This document shows, piece by piece, positions 4,805 to 48,668 of a stretch of 64,000 nucleotides of DNA. How positions within the stretch are numbered: the stretch's first letter is position 1; the number at the start of each line of letters is the position of its first letter. The translations under genes and the position numbers were made by a program. This DNA comes from an uncultured Gammaproteobacteria bacterium (GTDB taxonomy: Bacteria; Patescibacteriota; Patescibacteriia; 2-12-FULL-60-25): positions 33,458 to 97,457 of the forward strand of contig CAZKEE010000001.1 of NCBI GenBank assembly GCA_964551765.1, read 5' to 3'. The notes beneath the pieces were generated by a model. It was not told the DNA's origin. It saw only the letters and a list, made by a program, of their open reading frames with translations, and did no database searches.

Positions 4805-6652
4805 ATGTCTTTTTTTGCCTGCACCAATACGTATCAGAACATGATATACTTTTTATACTGCATGAAAAAAGCATTTTTATTAGACTGCCTACATCATATC
4901 TTTTTCATTGCCGCTTTCGTATTGCCGGTCTTGGCATTCGTAATATACGTTCCAGGTTATGCCGTCATTGCTGCTTGTAGCTTAGAAAACATCCCATTCA
5001 TCAACACGCAGATCAGTGAATTTGCGAATTTTGATACAAAAGCAGCAAATGCCTTAGACGGTATAGAGAACCTTATAGATAATGGCGTCGTCTCGGAAAA
5101 TGGGCCCGTGCTCTCTTACAAAACCGCACTTCAACAATGGGGTGCGCAAAGTAAAGATTACATAGATGCTTTACAAAGGTATAAAGTCGCACTCGATGCA
5201 AACGCCAGCGCTAGTAGCTATGATGAACATGTTATGACCTGCTCAGTCGCAGTGTCTGAGAATCAAAGGCTGCAAAACGTAGGTGTCCAGCTCAAAAGTT
5301 CTGAAAATATCATCAATCAACTTCAAGCCGATGCGCTGAAATGGCACGGAAATACGAACGACCCACTTGCAGCATCGCAATTTTATCTCAGACCTATCGA
5401 TAAAGTAGATACCATACCCTCGGATCATAAAGTTATCGTAGCCGTCATTGACGAAGGCGTGAACATCTACCAAGAAGACCTGGTCGGACATATATGGACC
5501 AACTCGAATGAGGTGGACGGGAACGGCATCGACGATGATGGAAACGGCTTTATCGATGACGTCCACGGATATAATTTCGTGAAGGGCAGCGGTGAGCTCA
5601 CGCCATATGGTAGTCATGGCACACATGTAGCCGGTCTTATAGCAGCTTCACAAAATAACGGTAAAGGAATAGAAGGTATAGCTCGAAATGCCCTTATCAT
5701 GCCCCTTATCGTTGGTGACGATAAGACGATTCCTATGGCTAACGTGGTTTCGGCGATAAAATACGCGGTAAATAATGGTGCAGATATTATCAATCTGTCA
5801 CTTGGCCTACGTGGTACCCAGTCTTATTCGACAGACTACGATGATGCGATCGGGTATGCCTTTGAACGCGGGGTCCTGGTTGTTGCTTCGGCCGGAAACG
5901 GTGACATATTGAACGGCAGCGGAGAGGACACGGGTGTCTATAAAACATCACCTGTTTGCAATGACAACGCCGAAAACATGGTTCTGGGCGTTGGGGCGAT
6001 AAATATTTTTGCGCAAAAAGCTCCTTGGTCGAACTTTGGCCCATGTGTTGATCTTTATGCCCCTGGAGAATCCATTCTCTCAACTGCCGTCTCAGCCTTT
6101 GATGGGTCCGAGTACGCAATTGATAGTGGAACATCGTTCTCAGCTCCAATCGTAACTGGTGTCGCTGCTGAGTTGAAGGCCATCTATTCCGACTTGAACC
6201 CCAAGGAGATTGTCTATCATCTAAAAAATACTGCCAGGATTATCAAAGGCATCCGCGTCATCGATATGCGCGCCGCCTTAGGCGCAACGCCTAAACGTGT
6301 AGCAATGGACTTACTTCCTCGTGTAGTCCCGCAAGCAATCGATTGTCCGCCAAATTCAATCCCTTTAAATGGTACCTGTGTCTGTTTGGTCGGTTATGAG
6401 AAAGACGCCTTTACGCTTACCTGCAATTCTCCGACGAACCAGCCGGCTACGCCCATACAAACTCCAGTCGCCCTCGCGATGCCCCCTGCTCAGCCAAAGA
6501 AGGAAAGCAACTGCCCCCTCGTGGGGGACACGAAGACGAAAAGGTACTACGCAAAAAACGACAAACGTGTGCCGAAAATTGTAGCTAAGAACCGAATTTG
6601 TTTCTCGGACGATAAGCAGGCGAAAACAAAGGGATACAAAAAAATAAAGTAA
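4805..6652 (+). CDS. Subtilisin-like serine peptidase (S8 family), secreted or membrane-anchored; low-GC island
   Basis: Asp/His/Ser triad motifs VAVIDEGV, HGTHVAGLIAA and GTSFSAPIVTG. N-terminal hydrophobic segment. GC far below genome average. Start codon uncertain (alternative Met near 4861). Confidence 0.85.
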   Translation: MSFFACTNTYQNMIYFLYCMKKAFLLDCLHHIFFIAAFVLPVLAFVIYVPGYAVIAACSLENIPFINTQISEFANFDTKAANALDGIENLIDNGVVSENGPVLSYKTALQQWGAQSKDYIDALQRYKVALDANASASSYDEHVMTCSVAVSENQRLQNVGVQLKSSENIINQLQADALKWHGNTNDPLAASQFYLRPIDKVDTIPSDHKVIVAVIDEGVNIYQEDLVGHIWTNSNEVDGNGIDDDGNGFIDDVHGYNFVKGSGELTPYGSHGTHVAGLIAASQNNGKGIEGIARNALIMPLIVGDDKTIPMANVVSAIKYAVNNGADIINLSLGLRGTQSYSTDYDDAIGYAFERGVLVVASAGNGDILNGSGEDTGVYKTSPVCNDNAENMVLGVGAINIFAQKAPWSNFGPCVDLYAPGESILSTAVSAFDGSEYAIDSGTSFSAPIVTGVAAELKAIYSDLNPKEIVYHLKNTARIIKGIRVIDMRAALGATPKRVAMDLLPRVVPQAIDCPPNSIPLNGTCVCLVGYEKDAFTLTCNSPTNQPATPIQTPVALAMPPAQPKKESNCPLVGDTKTKRYYAKNDKRVPKIVAKNRICFSDDKQAKTKGYKKIK

Positions 6653-11009: not shown

Positions 11010-11114
11010 AGCCAAGAAACACCCTTGCCAAGTCATCGATGACTTGGTAACTTACCGCTCGCCTCACAGGAGGCGAATATTCCGAGGTAGCTCAGCGGTA
11101 GAGCAGAGGACTGT

Positions 11115-11672
11115 GAACGCGTTTATCAGGGATTCGTAGAAAACTCTATGAAGAAAGATAAACGGACCTATGCCGAGCGTGCCGATTATCTCAAGAAGGC
11201 GGTCGTCAAAAGGCGGAAGAAGGTACGAGAGATGGCCATCGCATACAAAGGAGGTGTCTGCAGCATATGCGGATACGACCGATGCATGGGGGCCCTTGAG
11301 TTCCATCATCCCGACCCTTCGCAAAAGGATTTCAGCATCTCGATGGACGGACTGACGCGGTCATGGGACCGGGTCAAGAAGGAGATCGAGAAATGCGTCC
11401 TCATTTGCGCGAACTGCCATCGCGAGATACATGCCGGCATGACGCAGCTTCCGACGGTAACGTCGGATTGAAAATCGAGGTGAATTGCTGGAAGCCTACA
11501 GTCATCGATCGGATGACTACGGTGATCAGCAGCCAAGCCCTGGCATGGCCAGGGAAGGTTCAGAGACTATCCCGTACGGGAGTACATCGACGAAAGTCGG
11601 TGGAAGCGCCTCGCTCCGCCTAAGGCGGATGAAGATATAGTCCACCCCGTGCGGAAACGCATGGACAATGTG
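11115..11672 (+). mobile_element. Group I intron (about 558 nt) in the tRNA anticodon loop carrying an HNH homing endonuclease ORF
   Basis: After the ORF, TTCAGAGACTA (11559-11569) and GATGAAGATATAGTCC (11628-11643) match conserved P7/J6-7 and P7-P9.0 strands of group I ribozymes. Both candidate 3' splice sites end on G (11670/11672); the preferred 5' splice is after exon position 35 (11114), the alternative after U33 (11112). Candidate IGS ACAGTC at 11498-11503 would pair with exon GACTGT. Confidence 0.75.
11148..11471 (+). CDS. HNH homing endonuclease encoded within the group I intron
   Basis: 107 aa with CSICGY...LEFHHPDPS...CANCHREIH (HNH / zinc-finger motif). Confidence 0.85.
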   Translation: MKKDKRTYAERADYLKKAVVKRRKKVREMAIAYKGGVCSICGYDRCMGALEFHHPDPSQKDFSISMDGLTRSWDRVKKEIEKCVLICANCHREIHAGMTQLPTVTSD

Positions 11673-11720
11673 TAATCCTTTGGTCGTGGGTTCGATCCCC
11701 ACCCTCGGAGCCATGTATAG

Positions 11721-17498: not shown

Positions 17499-19721
17499 AT
17501 GAACGACATCTCCCTCATCGAAACACGCTACGCGACATCGAAAGACAGGCTCGTGGAGGCCCGAAAAAGGCTCGGTCGGCCTTTGACCTATGCCGAAAAG
17601 GTGCTCTGTTCGCATCTGGATGCGCCAAGCGCGCAGGAATGGGCGCCGGGATCGTCCCAGCTCGCCCTGCGTCCTGACCGCGTGGCCATGCAAGACGCCA
17701 CGGCCCAGATGGCCTTGCTCCAGTTCATGCAAAGCGGCCAAGCGCGTGTCGCCGTGCCGTCCACCGTGCATTGCGATCATCTCATCCGCGCGCAAAGCGG
17801 CGCCGCGCAAGACATCGAACGCGCCAAGACCGAGAACAAAGAGGTCTATGATTTCCTCCGTTCGGCCTCGGCAAAATATGGCATCGGCTTTTGGGAACCG
17901 GGCGCGGGCATCATCCATCAGGTCGTGCTGGAACGATATGCGTTCCCGGGAGGCCTCCTCATCGGCACGGATTCGCATACGCCGAACGGCGGAGGGCTCG
18001 GCATGCTTGCCATCGGCGTGGGAGGCGCGGATGCCGGCGAAGTGATGGCGGGCCTGCCCTGGGAAGTCCTGCACCCCAAGCTCATCGGCGTGAAGCTCAT
18101 CGGGCAACTTTCCGGCTGGACCTCGCCCAAGGACGTCATCCTGTACTTGTGCGGCTTGCTCACGACCAAGGGCGGCACGAACAAGATCATCGAATATTTC
18201 GGCCCCGGCGCCGCGACCATCAGCTGCACGGGCAAGGCGACCATCGCGAACATGGGCGCGGAGCTCGGCGCCACGGGCACGGTCTTTCCCTTTGATGCGC
18301 GCATGGCGGAGTATCTGCGCGCAATGGGCCGCGCGGATGTCGCCGCGCTTGCCGAGGCGCATGCGGCCGATCTCGCCGCGGACCCGGAGGTCGCGGCACA
18401 ACCCGATCGCTATTATGACGAGGTCATCGAGATAGATCTCTCAGCGCTCATGCCGCATGTGGTGGGCCCGCATTCGCCCGATGTGGCGCATCAGGTCACC
18501 CAGCTCGCGGATTTCGTGACCGCGCAGGGGCATCCGGCCGCGCTCACGAGCGCCCTCATCGGCAGCTGTACCAATTCTTCGTATGAGGACCTGAGCCGCG
18601 CGGCCGATGTCGCCAGGCAGGGGATAGCGGCCGGGCTCAAGGCGAAGGTCCCGTTCTTCGTGACGCCCGGGTCGACCCAGGTCTATGACACGGTGAAACG
18701 CGACGGTTTGCTCGACGTGTTCGAACAGATGGGCGGCATCGTGCTCGCCAATGCCTGTGGGCCCTGCATCGGCCAATGGAAACGCAGCGATATCCCGGAT
18801 GGACAGAAAAACTCCATCATCTCTTCGTTCAATCGCAATTTCCCCGGCCGCAATGATGGCAATGCTTTGACCTGCTCCTTCCTCGCGAGCCCGGAGGTGG
18901 TCACGGCCTATGCCTTCACCGGCCGTCTTGATAGCGATCCCATCGCGGCGCTCGGTTTGAAGCCCCCTGTCGGTGATACCCTTCCGACGAACGGCTTCGT
19001 GGCAAGCGATGCGGGGTTCCAGGCACCGGGCGAGGGCACGGATGTCGAGGTGCTCATCTCGCCCACGAGCGAACGTCTCCAGGTCTTGAGGCCTTTCGAT
19101 GCCTGGGACGGCAAGGACATGACGGACCTGCCCATCTTGCTCAAGACCAAGGGCAAGACCACGACGGACCACATCTCGCCGGCGGGCAAATGGCTGGCCT
19201 ATCGCGGACATCTCGACAAGATCAGCGACAACATGTTCTCGGGCGCCATCAATGCTTTCAGCGACAAGCCTGGCACGGGTCTCGACGTACGCACGGGCGA
19301 GCGCGAGGTCCCCATCTCGCAGATCGCGCGGCGATACAAGGCCGCGGGCCTGGGGTCCCTCGTCATCGGCGATGAGAACTATGGCGAAGGCTCGAGCCGC
19401 GAACATGCCGCCATGTCCCCGCGCTACTTGGGCGTGCGCGCCGTCCTTGCGCGCTCTTTCGCGCGCATCCATGAGACCAATCTCAAGAAGCAGGGCATCT
19501 TGCCTTTGACCTTCGCGGACGCGGGCGACTATGGCCTGTTCGGCGAGACCGACAAGGTCAGCGTCATCGGACTTTCGGAGCTCGCGCCAGGACGCGCGAT
19601 CGAAGTGCTTGTCCATAAGCCCGACGGCACGACGGCCACCATCAAGACGAAACACTCGCTCACCGCGCCGCAGATCGCCTGGTTCAAAGCCGGCTCGGCG
19701 CTTAATGCCTTGAAACCTTGA
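17499..19721 (+). CDS. acn: Aconitate hydratase
   Basis: 740 aa. Fe-S ligand region [19 protein letters not shown], and C-terminal swivel domain. Confidence 0.9.
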
Positions 19722-39852: not shown

Positions 39853-41088
39853 CTACAGAACGGCATGCTCGCCGGCAAGGCGGCCCGTGGCCCAGGAAGC
39901 TTGCAGATTGAAGCCGCCCGTGAAGCCGTCGATGTCGAGGATCTCTCCCGCGAAGAACAGGCCGGGGCATTTTTTCGATGCCATGCTCGACGGGTCCACC
40001 TCGGCGAGGTCTATGCCGCCCGCGGTCACGAACTCGTCCCCGGCCCCGCGCGCCACGGCTTGCAGCGGCACGCCCTTGAGCCATGCGGCGATGCGGGCCT
40101 GGTCCTTTTTCGAGAGCTCGGCCGCATGCCTCTCCGCAGGCACGTCATGCAATTGGCACACGATCTCGGCCAAGGACTTGGGCATGAGGGTCCCAAGCGC
40201 GTTCATCGCGCTTTTCTTCGCGTGCGATGCGCATGCGGCCGCGAGACGCGACATGAGCTCGTCCTGCGTCACATCGGGGAAGAGATCGATGGTGAAGTCG
40301 AGCGGGGTCTTGGCATCATAGGTCTCGAACGCGACCAGGGAAGACAAGGCGAACACGGCCGGCCCGCTCACGCCCTTATGCGTGAAGAGGAAAGGCCCCG
40401 TAAAGGCATAGGTCTTGTCACGTCGTGCCGTGAAGGTCGCTTTCTCGAAAGAGAGACCGGAGAGCGCCGCGGGCCAGGTCTCGCGCGTGAAAAAGGCGTT
40501 CAAGCTCGGCGCGAGCGTGGTGAGCGAATGACCAAGCGCGATGGCAAAGGCATAGCCGTCGCCGGTGGAACCGGTATGGCGATAGGCTTGGCCGCCGGTC
40601 GTGAGCACCACGCGGTCCAACAGGAGCGGTTCGTCCTTCCCTTTGACCGACACGGCAAAGCCGTCGCCGCGTTTTTCGATGCCCTGCACCTGTGCCTTGG
40701 TCCAGATATGGACATTCGAACGTGAAAACAATTTTTCGAAAGCCCCGACCACGTCACGCCCATCGTCCGAGACGGGGAAGACGCGCAGGTCTTCTTCGAC
40801 CTTGAGCGGCACGCCATGCGCCTCGAACCAGTCATACACGGCCTGCGGAGGGAAATGATGCATGGCCTTGGCCAGGAACTTGCCGCCGCGCGGATATTTG
40901 GTGAGCACGGTGCGGATATCCGTGATGCCGGTCGTGACATTGCAGCGCCCGCCGCCGGAGATGATGACCTTTTTGCCCAGGGCGTCGTTCCGTTCGAGCA
41001 CAAAGACCTCCGTCCCCGGAACGTGTTCGAGCACGGTCGCGGCGCTCATGAGCCCAGCCGCGCCGCCGCCCACGATGGCGATCTTCAT
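39853..41088 (-). CDS. NAD(P)/FAD-dependent oxidoreductase, HI0933/BaiN family
   Basis: MKIAIVGGGAAGLM dinucleotide-binding motif and C-terminal GEILDIDGFTGGFNLQ. The tool ORF to 41703 is an upstream artefact. Confidence 0.8.
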   Translation of the reverse strand: MKIAIVGGGAAGLMSAATVLEHVPGTEVFVLERNDALGKKVIISGGGRCNVTTGITDIRTVLTKYPRGGKFLAKAMHHFPPQAVYDWFEAHGVPLKVEEDLRVFPVSDDGRDVVGAFEKLFSRSNVHIWTKAQVQGIEKRGDGFAVSVKGKDEPLLLDRVVLTTGGQAYRHTGSTGDGYAFAIALGHSLTTLAPSLNAFFTRETWPAALSGLSFEKATFTARRDKTYAFTGPFLFTHKGVSGPAVFALSSLVAFETYDAKTPLDFTIDLFPDVTQDELMSRLAAACASHAKKSAMNALGTLMPKSLAEIVCQLHDVPAERHAAELSKKDQARIAAWLKGVPLQAVARGAGDEFVTAGGIDLAEVDPSSMASKKCPGLFFAGEILDIDGFTGGFNLQASWATGRLAGEHAVL

Positions 41089-41184
41089 GACACGGTTTGT
41101 ACCATATCCACGGGGTTTTGACAGGCGGTTCCCGGTCTTTCTCCGCTCTGGCATCATGGTCCCATCATTCCTCATCCTTTTTCT

Positions 41185-41553
41185 ATGGACGAAAACCCAC
41201 AGGCCGTCGAGCTCCACGTGTGCCGCGGCATGAACTCTTGTGCCGGCAAGGGCAAAGACGGTTCCGGTGCGATGGCCGGCGGCGGTTCTTGCGCCACCGC
41301 GTCCACCCATCATTGTGCCGGCAACAATGAATGCAAAGGCCAGGGCGGTTGCGGATATGGCTCTGCCGAGGTGCAGGAACATCCGGGCGAGAATGCGTGC
41401 AAAGGCCAGGGTGGGTGCGCCGTGCCCATCACGACCAATCTGAGCACCGATGGCACGAACAAGGACAAACCGGTGTGGGACCTGGCGCGCAAGTTGTTCG
41501 AGGCCCGCATGGCGAAGCAGGGCAAGGACGTGGCCCCAGCGCCAAAGGCATAA
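41185..41553 (+). CDS. Cys-rich bufferin-like RiPP precursor candidate (8 Cys; duplicated CKGQGGC cores), no signal peptide
   Basis: 122 aa. Cx5C/Cx7C units; [15 protein letters not shown] resembles DUF2282 cores (GHSCAG / AGKNDC). In-frame stop at 41119 and no alternative start upstream. Stop is 1 nt before the MNIO start. Confidence 0.6.
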
Positions 41554-41554
41554 C

Positions 41555-42394
41555 ATGATCGCGCCACGGCTCGGCTTGCCGAACCTCGGCATCGGGGTCG
41601 GTTTGCGCATGCCGCATGTCCCGTATGTGCTCGAACATCGGCCGAAGGTCGAGTGGTTCGAGATCATCTCGGAGAACTTCATGGGCTCGCATGGACGGCC
41701 CATGAGCCAGCTCGACGAGGTCGCGGAGCGCTATCCCATCGTCTTGCATGGCGTCTCCCTCTCCATCGGGAGCACGGATGCCGTGGACCGCGGCTATCTC
41801 GCGGCGCTCAAGTCGCTCGCCACGCGCATGCGAACGCCGTGGGTCTCCGATCATCTCTGCTGGACGGGCGTGAACGGTCTCAATACGCATGATCTCTTGC
41901 CGCTCCCGTTCACTGAGGCGTCTTTGCGACATGTCATCGCGCGCGTGCGGATGGTGCAAGAGGTCCTCGAGCGGCCCCTCGTCCTCGAAAACCCCAGCAG
42001 CTATGTCGCCTTCGCGTCTTCGAGCATGGGCGAGGCCAAGTTCCTCTCGCGCCTCACCGAGGCCACGGGCTGCGGTCTGCTCCTCGACGTGAACAACGTG
42101 TATGTGACGAGCCGCAATCTTGGGCTCGACCCGCTCGCGTATCTCGACGCCTTGCCGCATGACCGCGTCGTGCAATACCACGTGGCGGGCCATACCGATG
42201 CCGGCACCCACCTCATCGATACCCACGATGCGCCGGTCTGTGATGCGGTGTGGGACCTCTATGGAAAAGCGCTCGCGCTCACCGGTCCAGTATCGACCCT
42301 TCTCGAATGGGATGCGAAGCTTCCCACCTTCCCCGAGCTTGTCGCCGAGGCCGACAAGGCGCGTCAGTATCACCGACATCCTGCCTATGCCTGA
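41555..42394 (+). CDS. DUF692 multinuclear non-heme iron oxidative enzyme (MNIO; MbnB/BufB-like)
   Basis: [56 protein letters not shown] and HVAGH family signatures. Confidence 0.8.
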
Positions 42395-42989
42395 TCTGCA
42401 TGCCGTGCAAACCTGGATGTTCGACGCGATCACCCGTCCGCGCACCATCCTGCCCGATGAGATAGGGGAGCGTCTTCGCGGGTCGCCGACCCTTCCGCCA
42501 GCACGCGGCCTGGCCATCTATCAAGATGGATATGTCTCGCGTCTCGTCGAGTGCCTGGAAAAACAATTCCGCTTCCTGCACATGACGCTCGGCGATGAGG
42601 TCTTCGCGGCCTTCGCGCGCGACTATATTGCCGCCCATCCGCCGTCAAGCCATACCCTGGCCGATCTCGGCGCGCGTTTTCCCGACCATCTGCGGGAGAC
42701 GCGTCCGCCGAAAGAGGGGACATCACCCGATTGGCGCGACTTCCTCATCGACCTCGCCCGCTATGAACTGGCCTGGTCCGAGGTCTTTGATGCGCCGCAG
42801 GCGCAGGCCCTGCGAAAGCTCGCCTGCGACTATCCGGTGCATGCCTATGTGGACGCCTTGCGCCGTGACGCGACGACCGAGATGCCGGCCGCCCGACCGA
42901 CCTTGCTCGTCCTGGACCGCCCCGACCTGACCGTGCGCGTTCGCGAGCTGGAAGAACACGTGATACCATCGCGACACATCATATTATGA
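42387..42989 (+). CDS. DUF2063 partner protein (MbnC/BufC-like), short form
   Basis: 8-nt overlap with the MNIO gene. N-terminal [15 protein letters not shown] is typical of DUF2063. 200 aa, so likely the N-terminal domain only. Confidence 0.6.
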
Positions 42990-43375
42990 CCGACACACCC
43001 ATGAAGAAAGATGAAGAGCTCTCTCCCGAGCTCTATCGCGTGGCCCGCGCAAAGGGCACGGAACCGGCCTTCACCGGCGCTTATGTGAACGAACATGCGA
43101 AGGGGATGTATCACTGCGCGGTCTGCGGGGCCGAGCTGTTCTCGTCCGACACCAAGTTCGATTCCGGCACGGGATGGCCGAGCTTCACCGAGCCCGCCAA
43201 TCTCGCCAATGTCGAGCTCCATGACGACGACAGCCTGGGCATGCGGCGCACCGAGGTGACCTGCAAAAAATGCGGCGCGCATCTGGGACATGTCTTCGAT
43301 GACGGCCCGAGCGACAAGGGCGGCAAGCGCTATTGCATCAATTCCGTGTGTCTTGCGCTGAAAAAGCAAGAATAG
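42986..43375 (+). CDS. msrB: Peptide-methionine (R)-S-oxide reductase MsrB (cytoplasmic), translationally coupled to the MNIO operon
   Basis: ATGA overlap with DUF2063 stop. HCAVCG...[16 protein letters not shown]...RYCIN SelR motifs. Confidence 0.85.
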
Positions 43376-43413: not shown

Positions 43414-43980
43414 ATGGAGATCACGGATTCCCATCTCATCAAGGCGCATCTCGCGGGGGAAAAGGGCGCGTTCGACATCCTCGTCGCGCGGTATCTGCGT
43501 GCCGTGCATGCCGTGGCATTCCACTATGCCAAGAACCGCGCGGATGCCGAGGACATCGCGCAAGAGACCTTTCTCAAGGTATGGCGCCATCTGCAGCGCT
43601 TTGACACGGACAAGAACTTCAAGCCGTGGGTCTTGCAGATCACCAAGAACCAGGCCTTGGACCATCTCAAAAAGAAACGTCCGATGACGTTCTCGTCCAT
43701 CGAACAAGAGGACGTGGACCTGCTCGACCTCATCCCGGACACCTCCCCTTTGCCGGACGCATTGGCAAGACGCGCCGAAGAGATCGGCGGCCTGCGCGAG
43801 ACCCTGGACGGGCTGCCGGCGTCTGACAGAAAATTGCTTTTTTTCCGCTATATGAAGGGATTTTCCTTCAAAGAGATCGCGGAAGAGCTTGGTGAGGTCC
43901 TGGATACCGTCAAAAGCCGCCATCGCCGCCTCTTGCTGAAGCTCCGCAAAGAACTGCTCAATGCGGCCCCGTGGTCCTGA
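43414..43980 (+). CDS. ECF-type RNA polymerase sigma factor
   Basis: Sigma-70 region 2 (DAEDIAQETFLKVWRH) and region 4 (LLFFRYMKGFSFKEIAEELG). Confidence 0.85.
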   Translation: MEITDSHLIKAHLAGEKGAFDILVARYLRAVHAVAFHYAKNRADAEDIAQETFLKVWRHLQRFDTDKNFKPWVLQITKNQALDHLKKKRPMTFSSIEQEDVDLLDLIPDTSPLPDALARRAEEIGGLRETLDGLPASDRKLLFFRYMKGFSFKEIAEELGEVLDTVKSRHRRLLLKLRKELLNAAPWS

Positions 43981-44405
43981 AAAACACGCACCGAAACGGA
44001 CCCGACCCTCGTAATGAGGGTATGGTGAGTTTGCCCGATACTGCGCCCCGCGAAGGCCTGCTCCAAGAGATCTTGGCCGCGGTGGAACGTCAAGAACAGA
44101 CCCGCGCCGCCCGAAGGCGTTTTTGGGGGTTCCTGTTCCTGTGCGGCGCATCGCTTTGGGCGGTCATCTCGATGTCCATGGCCTTGGCCGCCGACCTGCG
44201 GCATTCCGGCTTTTTGGCCTTTGCCTCTTTGCTCTTCACGAACGGCGGTGACGTGCTCGCCAATTGGCGGGAGTTCTCTTATTCCTTGCTCGAGTCCTTG
44301 CCGGTCACCGAGCTCATCCTGACCTTGGGTCTCGGTCTCGCGGGCATGTATGCCTCGCGCTCGCTCCTGACCCGTCATGAACGCCTATGGACCCCCAACG
44401 CATAG
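43971..44405 (+). CDS. Putative membrane anti-sigma factor
   Basis: Overlaps the sigma gene stop. Cytoplasmic N-segment then TM helices. GTG start at 43971 or ATG at 44022. Confidence 0.45.
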   Translation: MVLKNTHRNGPDPRNEGMVSLPDTAPREGLLQEILAAVERQEQTRAARRRFWGFLFLCGASLWAVISMSMALAADLRHSGFLAFASLLFTNGGDVLANWREFSYSLLESLPVTELILTLGLGLAGMYASRSLLTRHERLWTPNA

Positions 44406-44836
44406 ATCGCCTCAAGACCGTGATGCTCACCTTGGCCGGCGTCATCGCCGTGCTTGCCGTGTTCCAGACCGGCGTCTTCGTCGGCTATCGCAAGGCGGCG
44501 TATTCCTGCCATTGGGGCGAACATCGTCGCCCGTTCTTCGAGCCGCGCATGGGGTTCATGGGTCCGCCTCCCGGTCCTCCCGGCGACGGTCCGGGGCGCG
44601 ACGCCTACATGGGCGGGCATGGCCTCGAAGGCACCGTCACCAAGATCGACGGAGATTCCCTCATCGTCACGGACCTCGACGGCGATGAGCGCACCGTCGT
44701 CATGGCGACGGGCACGGCGGTCAAACCCTCGGACAGCGACATGAGCACGGGCAGCCACGTGGTCATCCTGGGCGCGCCGGACGATGTCGGGAACATCGAG
44801 GCCCGCTTCATACGCATCACCCCATCGACACATTGA
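44387..44836 (+). CDS. DUF5666-like membrane-anchored beta-domain protein, paralogue 1
   Basis: N-terminal TM, Gly/Pro linker, GTVTKIDGDSLIVTDLDGDERTVVMATGTAV beta-rich domain. Overlaps the anti-sigma gene. Confidence 0.5.
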   Translation: MDPQRIDRLKTVMLTLAGVIAVLAVFQTGVFVGYRKAAYSCHWGEHRRPFFEPRMGFMGPPPGPPGDGPGRDAYMGGHGLEGTVTKIDGDSLIVTDLDGDERTVVMATGTAVKPSDSDMSTGSHVVILGAPDDVGNIEARFIRITPSTH

Positions 44837-44839
44837 CCT

Positions 44840-46750
44840 ATGCACCTTCCACGCATGTTCACGACCAAGCGCCTGATCGCCGTCCTCCTCTTGGGCGGCG
44901 CCGTGGCGGGCGTCCTCGTCTACAGGAACTCGACCGCCGTCACGACCAAGCCGACCTATGTGACCGCGCAGCCCTCGCGCGGCCTGCTCATCGTGTCCTT
45001 GAACGGCGCGGGCCAAGTGGCGTCGGAGAGCCGCGTCGACATCAAGCCCAAGGTCTCGGGCGACCTGCTCGCCATGAAGGTCGCGCCGGGGCAGCTCGTC
45101 AAGAAAGGCGATGTCATCGCTGAGATAGACAAGACGGCCGCGCTCAAGACCGTGCGCGATGCCGAGATCTCCCTCGCCTCGGCCAAGCTCTCCTTGTCCA
45201 AGCTCAAGCAGCCTCCCACCACGTCCAGCCTCATCGCGGCAAAGAACGCCGTGAGCGCGGCCGAACGAAATCTCCAGAACGCGCAGGCCACGGCGGCCGC
45301 GAACCTGCAGCAGGCCCAGGACCAAGTGGACGCGGCCGTGCGCAATACCCAGCTCTCTTCCGACGGCGTGACGCCGCAAGTGGTGCGGAACGTCTATGAC
45401 AACAGCGCGTCGGTCTATATCGCCGCCATGCAGACCACGGCGAACGCGGTGCATGACACGGACGGCATGGACTATAATCCGGACCTGTACTCGACCTTGG
45501 ACCCCACGCGCCGCGCCACCTTCGTGAGCGCATACCAAGCGGCCATCGCCGCGCGCGACGAGGCGATCAAACTGACCACGGCCTTGGCCATACAGAACGA
45601 GAAGATCGAGAACCTCGATGCCGCCAAGGACAAGGTCTCCTTCGCCATGGAAAAGACCATGGTGCTTTTGGGCGCGGCGGCCGATGCCTTGCAGACGACC
45701 ATCGCCTCGACCGGGCTTTCGCAGAGCGCCCTGGACCAGTTGAAGAGCGCGATACAGAGCGATCGCACCAATGTCGCGTCCAAGCAGGCGTCCATCCTGT
45801 CGCAGCAGCAGACCATCATCCAGGCCAAGAACGCCTATGCGGATTCCGGCGCCCAGTTGGCGCAGGCACAATCGACCTTGCAGCGCTTGCAGCAGGGCGG
45901 CGCGGACAAGGACGTCAAAGACGCGCAGGAGCGTTTGAACGAGGCCACGCAACAATTGAAAGACCTGCAAGCGGGACCCATGAGCATAGACGTCTCGCTC
46001 TCACAGAACACCATAGACAGCCGCGCGGCCACGCTTTCGGACGCCTTGGCCGCGCTCGCGGATTACACGGTGTATGCGCCGTTCGACGGCACCATCGCCG
46101 TGGCCGCTCCCTTGCCGGGAGACCCGATGGGCCCGAGCACCGTCGTCGCGACCATCGTGGGCAAGCAGCAGCTCGCGCAGATCACCTTGAACGAGGTGGA
46201 CGCGGCCAAGGTCAAGGTCGGTCAAAAGGCGACCGTGGCCTTCGATGCCATCCCTGACCTGACCATCAGCGGCGTGGTGCAATCCATCGATACCTTGGGC
46301 ACGGTCTCGCAGGGCGTCGTGAGCTATGCCGTCAAGATCAGCTTCGACACCCAGGACGAACGCGTGCGGCCCGGCATGAGCGTGAGCGCATCCATCATCA
46401 CGGATTCCAAAGCGGATGCGCTGACCGTGCCTTCGAGCGCGGTCAAGGCCGCGGGCGCGGGATCGTATGTCGACGTGCTCGACACGGTGCCCGCCGATGC
46501 GACCGGACCCGTCGAAGGGACCCCGCGCCGCGTCACGGTGCAGACCGGCCTCGCGAACGACAGCCAAACGGAGATCACGAACGGCCTCACGGGCACCGAG
46601 AACGTGGTCGTGCAGACCATACAACCCAAGACCGGCACGACCGCGACGACCCAGAACACCAATGCCTTACGCGCCCTCACGGGCGGCGGGGGAGGGGGTG
46701 GAGGAGGGAACTTCCGTTTCGGCGGGGGAGGCGCGGCGGGCGGACGCTGA
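44840..46750 (+). CDS. HlyD/MacA-family periplasmic adaptor (membrane fusion protein) with poly-Gly C-terminal tail
   Basis: N-terminal TM, long coiled-coil, beta-barrel/lipoyl-like C-domain. Ends in GGGGGGGGGNFRFGGGGAAGGR. Confidence 0.75.
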   Translation: MHLPRMFTTKRLIAVLLLGGAVAGVLVYRNSTAVTTKPTYVTAQPSRGLLIVSLNGAGQVASESRVDIKPKVSGDLLAMKVAPGQLVKKGDVIAEIDKTAALKTVRDAEISLASAKLSLSKLKQPPTTSSLIAAKNAVSAAERNLQNAQATAAANLQQAQDQVDAAVRNTQLSSDGVTPQVVRNVYDNSASVYIAAMQTTANAVHDTDGMDYNPDLYSTLDPTRRATFVSAYQAAIAARDEAIKLTTALAIQNEKIENLDAAKDKVSFAMEKTMVLLGAAADALQTTIASTGLSQSALDQLKSAIQSDRTNVASKQASILSQQQTIIQAKNAYADSGAQLAQAQSTLQRLQQGGADKDVKDAQERLNEATQQLKDLQAGPMSIDVSLSQNTIDSRAATLSDALAALADYTVYAPFDGTIAVAAPLPGDPMGPSTVVATIVGKQQLAQITLNEVDAAKVKVGQKATVAFDAIPDLTISGVVQSIDTLGTVSQGVVSYAVKISFDTQDERVRPGMSVSASIITDSKADALTVPSSAVKAAGAGSYVDVLDTVPADATGPVEGTPRRVTVQTGLANDSQTEITNGLTGTENVVVQTIQPKTGTTATTQNTNALRALTGGGGGGGGGNFRFGGGGAAGGR

Positions 46751-46756
46751 TCGCCT

Positions 46757-47458
46757 ATGGTGATGATAGAGGTGGACAATGTCACCAAGTCGTACACGAC
46801 GGGCGACGGCACGGAGTTCCAGGCCCTGAAGGGGATCTCGTTGAAAGTGGCCAAAGGAGATTTCGTGGCCATCATGGGGCCTTCGGGTTCCGGCAAATCC
46901 ACCCTCATGCATATCCTCGGCGCGCTCGACACGCCCACCACGGGCCGCTATTTCCTCGACGGCAAGGATGTCTCCCGGATGCGCGAGGACGAGCTCGCCG
47001 TGGTCCGCAGGGAGCGGATCGGGTACGTGTTCCAGTCCTTCAACCTCTTGCCGCGCACCACGGTACTGCGCAATGTCTCTTTGCCGCTCATGTACAAGGG
47101 CGTGCCGCGACATGAACGCATGGAGCGTGCCATCAAGGCCTTGCACGCCGCGGGCATGGAAGAGGCGAAGTTCTTCAACCTCTCGAACCAGCTCTCCGGC
47201 GGGCAGATGCAGCGCGTGGCCATTGCCCGCGCGCTCGTGAACGATCCGGCCATCATCCTGGCGGACGAACCGACCGGCAATCTCGACACCAAGACCGGCG
47301 AGTTCATCATGGGCACGTTCCAACGCCTCAATGACGAAGGCCATACCATCGTGCTCATCACGCATGAACGCGACGTGGCCGAACATGCCAAACGCATCTT
47401 CGTGCTGCGCGACGGCGTGGTGCAGCAGGAGGTACAAGGGAAATATGAACGTCACTGA
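46757..47458 (+). CDS. ABC transporter ATP-binding protein, MacB/LolD type
   Basis: GPSGSGKST Walker A, LSGGQMQRVAIARAL signature, and ILADEPTGNLD. Confidence 0.85.
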   Translation: MVMIEVDNVTKSYTTGDGTEFQALKGISLKVAKGDFVAIMGPSGSGKSTLMHILGALDTPTTGRYFLDGKDVSRMREDELAVVRRERIGYVFQSFNLLPRTTVLRNVSLPLMYKGVPRHERMERAIKALHAAGMEEAKFFNLSNQLSGGQMQRVAIARALVNDPAIILADEPTGNLDTKTGEFIMGTFQRLNDEGHTIVLITHERDVAEHAKRIFVLRDGVVQQEVQGKYERH

Positions 47459-48668
47459 TCTCGCGGAAGAGACCTATTTGGCGCTGTCCTCGAACAAGGT
47501 GCGCTCGGCCTTGACCATGCTCGGCATCGTCATCGGCATCGCGTCCGTCATCGCCATGGTGGCCATCGGCCAGGGCGCGCAGGCCGGCATACAGGCGAGC
47601 ATACAATCCGTCGGGTCCAACTTGGTCCTGGTCCTGCCGGGCGCGCAACGCGGCGTGGGCGTGCAGGTCAGCGCGGGACGCGGGTCGGCACAGACCCTGA
47701 CCCAGGGCGACGCGGACGCCATCGCGTCCTCGGTCCAGTCGCTCGCCGGCGTCGCACCCGAGCTCACGCGCCGCTATCAAGTGACGGCCAAGGGGACCAA
47801 TACCAATACCTCGGTCATCGGCACGACGCCGGACTATCCGGCGGTGCGCAATGTGCAGATCGACCAAGGGCGTTTCATCACGGACCAGGACCTGCGCTCG
47901 CTCGGCCGCGTGGCCGTGATCGGGCCCACGGCGCGCGATGACCTTTTTGGCGCGGACGCCCAGGCCATCGGCCAGATCATCAAGGTGAACAATATCGAGC
48001 TCCGCGTGGTCGGCATCACGGTGGCCAAGGGCGGCTCCGGCTTCAACAATCCGGATGATGCCATCTATATCCCGCTCGCCAGCGCGCAAAAGCTCTTGGC
48101 CGGGTCCTCCTTCGTCTCGACCATCAGCGTGGCCGCCTCGAGCCAGGACGCGATGTCCGCGGTGCAGGCCCAGGTGACGGCGCTCTTGCTCGCGCGCCAT
48201 AACATCTCGGACCCGGCCATGGCAGATTTCAACGTGCTCAACCAGGCGGACATCGTGGCCACGGCCTCGAGCGTCGCGAACACCTTCACCGTCCTGCTCG
48301 CCTCCATCGCCGGCATCTCCTTGCTCGTCGGCGGCATCGGCATCATGAACATGATGCTGACCTCGGTCACCGAGCGCACACGCGAGATCGGTCTGCGCAA
48401 GGCCATCGGCGCGCAACGCGAGGACATCACTTTGCAGTTCCTGACCGAGGCCGTGGCCCTGACCTTTTTAGGCGGGCTCATCGGGGTGATGCTCGGCCTG
48501 GGCGTCTCTTGGGGCGTGACGAAGTTCGCAGGCATCGCGAGCCAGGTCTCCCTCGGGTCCATCGCCCTGGCCTTCGGCGTCTCGGCCGGCATCGGCGTGC
48601 TGTTCGGGTATTATCCCGCCCAACGCGCGGCACGGCTCAACCCCATCGAGGCTTTGCGCTATGAATAG
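47445..48668 (+). CDS. ABC transporter permease, FtsX/MacB type
   Basis: N-terminal TM, large periplasmic domain, and three C-terminal TM helices of the FtsX fold. 14-nt overlap with the ATPase gene. Confidence 0.8.
   Translation: MNVTDLAEETYLALSSNKVRSALTMLGIVIGIASVIAMVAIGQGAQAGIQASIQSVGSNLVLVLPGAQRGVGVQVSAGRGSAQTLTQGDADAIASSVQSLAGVAPELTRRYQVTAKGTNTNTSVIGTTPDYPAVRNVQIDQGRFITDQDLRSLGRVAVIGPTARDDLFGADAQAIGQIIKVNNIELRVVGITVAKGGSGFNNPDDAIYIPLASAQKLLAGSSFVSTISVAASSQDAMSAVQAQVTALLLARHNISDPAMADFNVLNQADIVATASSVANTFTVLLASIAGISLLVGGIGIMNMMLTSVTERTREIGLRKAIGAQREDITLQFLTEAVALTFLGGLIGVMLGLGVSWGVTKFAGIASQVSLGSIALAFGVSAGIGVLFGYYPAQRAARLNPIEALRYE

Follow-up and report, generated by a model that had tools for sequence, protein, structure and literature searches.

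A 64,000-nucleotide stretch of DNA from an uncultured bacterium, referred to here as the window, encodes a cysteine-rich protein of 122 residues in the open reading frame (ORF) 41185-41553. [quoted passage not shown] With the adjoining MNIO and partner genes it would probably constitute a system in which a cytoplasmic mini-protein is modified and binds metal. The three genes form a minimal cassette, with products of 122, 279 and 200 aa. Characterised bufferin-type MNIO products (Buf1, Buf2 and HvfA) are all Sec-exported and shield the periplasm from copper. RpoD from the window is 84-91% identical to proteins labelled 'Patescibacteria group bacterium' or 'Candidatus Uhrbacteria bacterium', and the host is therefore a bacterium of the candidate phyla radiation (CPR; Patescibacteria, Uhrbacteria-like). 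What is new here is a new phylum for, and a minimal form of, a family that had previously been flagged by bioinformatics.

A cysteine-rich protein directly ahead of an MNIO gene

The protein contains eight cysteines, at positions 13, 19, 36, 44, 50, 56, 72 and 78, which are spaced as C13-x5-C19, C36-x7-C44, C44-x5-C50-x5-C56 and C72-x5-C78. Both the number and the spacing had been given by a first-pass annotation, made by a model from the DNA sequence, and translation of the ORF bears them out. The same annotation had pointed to a unit N-x-CKGQGGC that occurs twice. Indeed, NECKGQGGC (residues 48-56) and NACKGQGGC (residues 70-78) are identical at 8 of 9 positions, a repeat that did not arise in any of 5000 shuffles of the protein's own residues.

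No signal peptide is apparent, as had also been proposed. No 11-residue segment of the first 30 residues exceeds a mean Kyte-Doolittle hydropathy of 0.39, too low for an h-region, and a twin-arginine motif (RRxF) with an h-region is likewise absent from the protein. The annotation had allowed for a sequencing error creating a false stop at 41119 behind which a signal peptide might be hidden. There is an in-frame stop at this position, and an error of this kind can be excluded because the sequence following it (QAVPGLSPLWHHGPIIPHPFS) is proline/histidine-rich and not signal-like, because two independent Logan assemblies carry this very protein unchanged, and because the starts of all 11 relatives with 55-71% identity lie 9-15 residues ahead of an invariant HVC.

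The ORF is the first gene of a close-packed set on one strand (Table 1), in which the gaps are 1 nt between substrate and MNIO, -8 nt between MNIO and partner, and -4 nt between partner and the methionine sulfoxide reductase gene msrB. The MNIO passes the equivalog cut-off of the NCBIfam MNIO_BufB model (310 bits) and stays under the cut-off of each of the HvfB, ApyH, MbnB and ChrH models; its best sequence match in the PDB is 3bww, a DUF692 protein (E 2.5e-47). No other small cysteine-containing ORF in the operon is fit to be a substrate, and there is no protease gene between 41185 and 48668.

A widespread and conserved family

Homologues of the 122-aa protein are numerous. They fall into 844 clusters at 90% identity (E<=0.01), and into 494 clusters at 50% identity with E<=1e-3, 265 of which reach E<=1e-10. 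The family occupies at least 497 loci in GTDB species representatives and spans seven or more phyla, among them Acidobacteriota, Bacteroidota, Actinomycetota, Pseudomonadota, Planctomycetota and Verrucomicrobiota. Locus context was counted over the best 80 of these at least 497 loci: in all 80 the homologue lies directly ahead of an MNIO gene and of a gene homologous to the window's partner, and four close-clade loci repeat this order of homologue, MNIO and partner.

Conservation is high over the whole length of the protein. Across 196 distinct members, conservation of every one of the window protein's eight cysteines is at least 99%, and the pattern therefore holds in orthologous loci, where the first-pass annotation had looked for a possible failure of its reading. 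The same level is reached by H11, G15, N17, G32, G34, H42, Q53-G57, P67-G68 and G76, and in the C-terminal part by P81, W98, R102, F105, E106 and P120; H11, H42, P81, W98 and R102 are invariant, and F105, E106 and P120 nearly so. Position 30 is more variable, with cysteine in 78% of these members and methionine in 19%. The window protein has Met30 (41272-41274) in place of what is the ninth conserved cysteine of the family. Met30 forms are those of the Actinomycetota and of the window's own clade, and the same lineages tend to have a short partner of 190-230 aa; the co-occurrence of the two traits in Actinomycetota and CPR could reflect either shared ancestry or transfer.

Signal-less, exported and fused forms

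The lack of a recognisable signal is not peculiar to the window ORF, and by sequence prediction it is conserved and the usual state in the family, the majority of members being without one. Among 149 diverse representatives, 62 have no hydrophobic N-terminus, and the window protein likewise has none. Short, hydrophilic, signal-less N-termini are seen in the window's clade and in Pyrinomonadaceae, Bacteroidota, Actinomycetota, Chitinimonas and Marinomonas. Members from the Pirellulales (Planctomycetota) and Verrucomicrobia carry twin-arginine translocation (Tat) signals of the form RRDF...AALGG, not Sec signals (for instance those at L047 6630-7127, L051 and L082, and proteins P0044-P0120), and Tat-signal profiles match 14-20 of 85 aligned members. 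A literature search found no paper linking MNIO substrates with Tat export.

In other members the cysteine-rich domain is joined to proteins of 400-800 aa, and several of these fusions are confirmed by Pfam. In the 688-aa protein P0314 (L088 6001-8067) the domain is C-terminal to a ferritin-like PF12902 part of about 530 aa, in which no signal or membrane domain is recognised, and the gene is followed by those for an MNIO and an HvfC_N protein. In P0358 (L090 865-2097) and P0363 it is C-terminal to a DoxX membrane domain, and in P0371 it is N-terminal to DUF2063 itself. The ferritin-like protein is also a common neighbour: clustering of neighbouring genes placed a separate PF12902 gene on the same strand beside the cassette in 75 of 79 GTDB loci; in Bacteroidota and Proteobacteria it is upstream of the substrate gene, in Actinomycetota downstream of the partner gene. 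These proteins are 420-490 aa long and score 137-142 bits (for instance L013 6465-7868, L027 6627-7892 and L054 10309-11517). The gene is absent from the Tat-type loci, from L003, the closest GTDB relative, and from the whole 64-kb window, which was scanned with a profile built from the 75 loci. Literature searches on DUF692 with ferritin-like proteins and on DUF7640 returned nothing relevant.

Many signal-less relatives from Bacteroidota and Acidobacteriota (L004-L050) have an additional N-terminal motif, N-x-x-L-C-G-G, with a Pro/Ala-rich linker. These relatives also have a cysteine-rich C-terminal extension (CGPP..WL...SYDSCG.SG.K.CSFGFN), and the total rises to 21-22 cysteines in Pyrinomonadaceae.

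Relation to known bufferins

No Pfam family matches the 122-aa protein at E<=0.1, and its sole curated match is to the NCBIfam family BufA2 (NF050166), at 19.9 bits over residues 38-79, far under the equivalog cut-off of 60 bits. The match is weak and consistent: BufA2 is detected in 84 of the 85 aligned members, with a best E-value of 7e-9, and none of those scanned singly reached the cut-off (top score 33.9 bits). The Buf2/BufA2 system of Caulobacter vibrioides also consists of a small cysteine-rich protein in front of a BufB-type MNIO and a DUF2063 partner, and the two proteins share N-x-C-K-G-x-G-x-C-like motifs. BufA2, however, is a periplasmic protein that is exported through Sec and has 6 or 12 cysteines, and the helix that carries W98, R102, F105 and E106 in the window protein lies outside the 79-position BufA2 profile. 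Membership of BufA2 was accordingly rejected, as the match is sub-threshold, the cysteines number eight and there is no Sec signal. DUF7640 matches 31 of the 85 members, below threshold.

The first-pass annotation had heard an echo of DUF2282, the family of Buf1/BufA1, in short motifs around the cysteines. This could not be measured, DUF2282 matching 0 of the 85 members at E<=1, and the one detectable link to bufferins is the sub-threshold BufA2 match; membership of DUF2282/BufA1 was rejected for want of a model match and of a Sec signal. The enzyme and partner classes are nevertheless those of BufA1, and as at Buf1-type loci an MNIO and a DUF2063 partner lie alongside. In BufA1, cysteines become 5-thiooxazoles that chelate Cu(I)/Cu(II), and genes for extracytoplasmic function (ECF) sigma and anti-sigma factors are often adjacent (Leprevost et al. 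2024, PMC11626156; Antoine et al. 2025, PMC12452194). BufA1 differs in having four cysteines and a Sec signal, and a DoxX gene usually accompanies it; the window locus shows none of these features. By its profile, then, the window protein is akin to bufferin cores and a member of neither curated bufferin family, and the annotation was right in kind in viewing it as a bufferin-like, signal-less MNIO substrate.

Two further systems invite comparison. HvfA, or oxazolin (Buf_EGKCG), is served in Haemophilus influenzae by HvfB and HvfC, again an MNIO with an HvfC-type partner, and the product of that system is a copper-binding protein with modified cysteines. The window protein has no EGKCG repeats and HvfA is Sec-exported; on the HvfB model the window MNIO reaches 251.8 bits where the cut-off is 360, and the score on the HvfC model is 38 bits where the cut-off is 142. 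Csp3 (ref. 54 in PMC12452194) is a functional analogue only, being a cytoplasmic cysteine-rich protein proposed to buffer copper. It is an unrelated four-helix bundle that binds copper through unmodified thiolates, and no relation of sequence or fold to the window protein was found.

A closer counterpart is adjamnio-I, an uncharacterised cluster of 100 sequences of 122-293 aa with 8-21 cysteines and no Sec signal, which precede an MNIO gene (Antoine et al. 2025, PMC12452194, Table 2). The window protein, with eight cysteines in 122 aa, no Sec signal and a place directly ahead of an MNIO, fits this description, as do relatives with up to 21-22 cysteines. Because the ranges of length and cysteine number fit so closely, the two families are likely the same; the match was made to the published description, the published alignment being an image. 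Six WP accessions of relatives had no match in part of the supplementary tables of PMC12452194, which is uninformative. The partners are a point of difference. That of adjamnio-I was assigned to PME-type 2, which has no Pfam DUF2063 signature, whereas here all eight partners tested match PF09836 with 60-74 bits. The window partner does resemble many PME-type 2 proteins in being short with a truncated RiPP recognition element (RRE)-like part, RiPP denoting peptides that are made by the ribosome and modified after translation (PMC12452194). The proposed rule pairs PME-type 1 partners with Sec signals and signal-less precursors with PME-type 2 (PMC12452194); it is not obeyed here, since the tested partners of a signal-less family match PF09836 in its current Pfam model. 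Tat signals, ferritin-like neighbours, fusions and Patescibacteria are not mentioned in PMC12452194, and no mention was found in the other literature searched.

The C-terminal helix and the truncated partner

The first-pass annotation had described a cysteine-free, amphipathic tail of about 45 residues that might act as a follower behind tandem cores. The last 44 residues are indeed free of cysteine. Their amphipathic character is moderately supported, with a hydrophobic moment of 0.53 for residues 92-106 and 0.22 for residues 97-111. An AlphaFold2 (AF2) model of the substrate, built with the 85-sequence alignment, reached a predicted local distance difference test score (pLDDT) of 69.7 and a predicted template modelling score of 0.68; its cysteine-rich part is poor in regular secondary structure, and a confident helix is seen at residues 97-111 (pLDDT 82-89). 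The tail contains four of the most conserved residues of the family (W98, R102, F105 and E106), and in most relatives its helix is internal, with further cysteine-rich sequence coming after it. Because of these conserved residues and of the cysteine-rich sequence beyond, residues 11-120 are best taken as one conserved domain and the tail as an internal element of it, contrary to the division into tandem cores and a follower.

The structure of the partner is predicted with higher confidence (AF2, pLDDT 91.8) and consists of a helical domain at residues 1-135 followed by three strands and one helix. By sequence it has no match in the PDB, and its best neighbours in a Foldseek search are TglI (8hci/8hi7), NGO1945 (3dee) and MbnC (7dz9). 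Compared with relatives of 260-300 aa, it is without an insertion of about 30 residues and without the C-terminal 65 or so residues, the stretch that makes up the helices in the RRE-like NGO1945_C domain. Short partners (190-230 aa) occur at L083-L085 and in a Streptomyces/Kitasatospora group; elsewhere the partners are of 255-300 aa. The substrate tail is equally conserved with short and with long partners. As it is conserved despite the loss of the RRE-like helices, its recognition by those helices alone is disfavoured, and a simple follower-RRE model appears not to be favoured.

Proposed function and alternatives

In the precedent used here, BufB together with BufC turns cysteines of BufA1 into copper-chelating 5-thiooxazoles, the Sec signal is dispensable for this modification, and BufB-type enzymes act on individual cysteines (PMC11626156). 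The first-pass annotation had supposed that MNIOs convert pairs of cysteines 5-6 residues apart into heterocycles, which is not an established rule. Two 2026 preprints return to the HvfA-type modification of H. influenzae as a thiooxazole, the one by its title and the other by setting thiooxazoles apart from oxazolone-thioamides (10.64898/2026.07.17.739211, 10.64898/2026.06.05.730506). By extension from BufB chemistry, the BufB-type MNIO of the window would act in complex with the short DUF2063 partner and oxidatively turn some of the conserved cysteines of the folded or part-folded mini-protein into 5-thiooxazoles. Helix 97-111 and the invariant histidines and cysteines may serve for docking to the enzyme complex or else for packing of the mature fold.

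The product would then stay in the cytoplasm and buffer copper or another thiophilic metal by binding it. A cytoplasmic location is suggested because the absence of a Sec or Tat signal is conserved, because there is no protease and no family-conserved exporter, because the domain is found fused to a ferritin-like protein without recognised signal or membrane domain, and because the exported branch of the family uses Tat, which exports folded proteins. The co-transcribed msrB, together with the ECF sigma/anti-sigma pair next to it, may link expression to oxidative or metal stress. The synteny with msrB and the ECF sigma gene, kept at L083/L084 (substrate 71% identical at L083), suggests by analogy with many bufferin clusters a regulon of oxidative or metal stress (PMC12452194).

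Several observations weigh against this proposal. C19 or C72 has been lost in several close relatives (P0004, P0007, P0010 and P0011), so not every cysteine pair is essential. At a distance of 1.3 kb downstream there is an exporter of the MacAB type, whose synteny is retained in one relative, so that export has to be reckoned with in the window's clade. The AF2 model of the substrate has just moderate confidence (pLDDT as above) and no neighbour in the PDB, and recognition is left without explanation where half of the RRE-like domain is missing. Most signal-less relatives have the ferritin-like gene that the window lacks, and the minimal cassette may function differently from the loci that bear it. 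Finally, the function of the family members is purely predicted.

The downstream exporter raises the alternative that the same MNIO-modified product leaves the cell without a signal, through the adjacent YknX/MacB-type ATP-binding cassette (ABC) system, and acts outside like the known bufferins. The adaptor, ATPase and MacB permease genes (44855-48668) are on the same strand, and a YknX-type gene is syntenic at L083, where the substrate is 71% identical. Export by this route is nonetheless unlikely: an ABC ATPase is near in just 3 of the 80 loci, and there on the opposite strand, while in the window the ECF sigma gene and two more genes separate cassette and transporter. MacB-type pumps expel their substrates from the outer membrane face and not across the membrane, and those relatives that are exported use Tat. 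Another reading takes the protein as a classical multi-core RiPP precursor, with the two NxCKGQGGC units as cores and the C-terminal 45 residues as an RRE-bound follower that is later cleaved off. The repeated nine-mer and the conserved C-terminal helix speak for it, as does the finding that a bufferin precursor carries recognition determinants outside its signal peptide (PMC11626156). It is rendered improbable by an operon without a protease, by sequence between and around the repeats that is as conserved as the repeats, by a 'follower' that is internal in most relatives and equally conserved where the RRE-like helices of the partner are deleted, and by the occurrence of the domain within large proteins. 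Canonical RiPP precursors differ from this case in that here a protease is absent, the RRE-like domain is truncated and the MacAB-type exporter is not conserved in the family.

About as improbable is that the protein is not a substrate at all and is instead an unmodified Cys/His-rich metalloprotein, akin to metallothioneins or to Zn or Fe-S proteins, which donates metal or electrons to the MNIO or is merely co-regulated with it. The invariant histidines, the cysteine pattern and the predicted compact fold would suit such a protein, as would the links of the family to ferritin-like and DoxX redox proteins. Yet the slot directly upstream of the MNIO gene is where bufferin clusters canonically have their substrate (PMC12452194), the operon offers no second candidate for it, the cysteine-rich core resembles BufA2, and in P0371 the domain and the DUF2063 partner are parts of one protein. 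It is hardly credible that the locus is an artefact, whether a chance ORF in DNA of high G+C or the outcome of a frameshift or false stop that conceals a Sec signal. Long antisense ORFs do overlap it (for instance 39853..41703 on the minus strand), and these are by-products of high G+C content; the 844 clusters of homologues, the identical protein in two assemblies, the start shared in the close clade and the upstream sequence unlike a signal all speak for a genuine gene. Modification by the adjoining MNIO and retention in the cytoplasm thus stay the preferred reading.

Implications

More tentatively, the family may represent a cytoplasmic branch of bufferins, in which an MNIO-modified cysteine-rich domain is intracellular: a stand-alone protein in Patescibacteria, coupled or fused to a PF12902 ferritin-like protein in most Bacteroidota, Actinomycetota and Proteobacteria, and exported by Tat after folding in Planctomycetota. 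If true, this would run against the proposed pairing of DUF2063 (PME-type 1) partners with Sec-signal precursors, and thiooxazole metalloproteins would be an intracellular metal/redox system and not solely a periplasmic copper shield. In phylum range the family is at least as widespread as the characterised bufferin-type MNIO products, and it keeps a bona fide DUF2063 partner. The minimal cassette, in a Patescibacteria bacterium with a small genome, would provide a compact system for studying the leaderless recognition of a folded substrate and the role of Met30 in place of cysteine. The Tat-signal and fusion variants are natural controls of localisation.

Neighbouring genes and upstream sequence

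Table 1. The cassette, its upstream block and the genes that follow it, in window coordinates
Feature	Coordinates	Strand	Evidence and remarks
Upstream block common with L083: GTTTTGACA, ~26 nt, TGGCATCAT, ~8 nt, TCATTC	41113..41176	+	alignment
Cys-rich protein, presumed MNIO substrate ('precursor')	41185..41553	+	ATG start, 122 aa
MNIO (DUF692), BufB type, 279 aa	41555..42394	+	PF05114 362.7 bits; NF050167 MNIO_BufB 362.4 bits
MNIO partner, 200 aa, DUF2063/HvfC_N and truncated RRE-like domain	42387..42989	+	PF09836 73.8 bits
MsrB, methionine-(R)-sulfoxide reductase	42986..43375	+	PF01641 171.9 bits; TIGR00357 170.3 bits; start overlaps partner stop (ATGA)
ECF-type sigma-70 factor, 38 nt past MsrB	43414..43980	+	TIGR02937 115.8 bits, PF04542, PF08281
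Small membrane protein, candidate anti-sigma by position only	44025..44405	+	gene call; no Pfam match
149-aa protein, one N-terminal hydrophobic segment, no family	44387..44836	+	
YknX/HlyD-type membrane-fusion (adaptor) protein, MacAB-like exporter	44855..46750	+	PF13437, PF16576, PF25990 Beta-barrel_YknX
ABC transporter ATPase, MacB-type partner	46757..47458	+	PF00005 120.2 bits
MacB-type permease (MacB_PCD and FtsX)	47445..48668	+	PF12704 168.8 bits, PF02687 76 bits

The ECF sigma factor is likely the regulator of the operon. A longer ORF over the small membrane protein that follows it has a weak match to an NCBIfam 'antisigma' model (E 0.067). The YknX-type gene adjoins in the window and at L083, and this arrangement is not family-wide. 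Upstream of the substrate gene lies a divergent gene for an HI0933-type flavoprotein.

The block ahead of the substrate gene aligns to L083 1190-1270, a comparison of two relatives, and could possibly serve as a promoter or in regulation. Ahead of the substrate ATG no Shine-Dalgarno sequence can be discerned, and a sigma-70 scan upstream of the ORF gave no consensus pair and no -10 element at normal spacing.

Other features of the window

A tRNA gene split by a group I intron is found at 11081-11715 on the forward strand, with the intron core matching RF00028 at 11377-11664 (70.2 bits, E 9e-16). The 5' half runs from 11081 (TCCGAGG-TA-GCTCAGCGGTAGAGC...), and the 3' half ends in ...GTGGGTTCGATCCCCAC-CCTCGGA-G-CCA near 11715. 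The anticodon can be read as GUG or as UGU, according to where the splice site is placed. ARAGORN missed this tRNA both with and without its intron option, and the halves were recognised by eye. Between the 5' half and the intron core, a 107-aa ORF on the same strand (11148-11471) contains an HNH motif (CSICGY...HH...CANCHREIH) and likely encodes an intron-borne homing endonuclease. Elsewhere on the forward strand, the window encodes a mycosin-like subtilase (4805-6652) and a full-length aconitate hydratase (17499-19721; TIGR01340, 999.8 bits), an enzyme unusual for CPR genomes.

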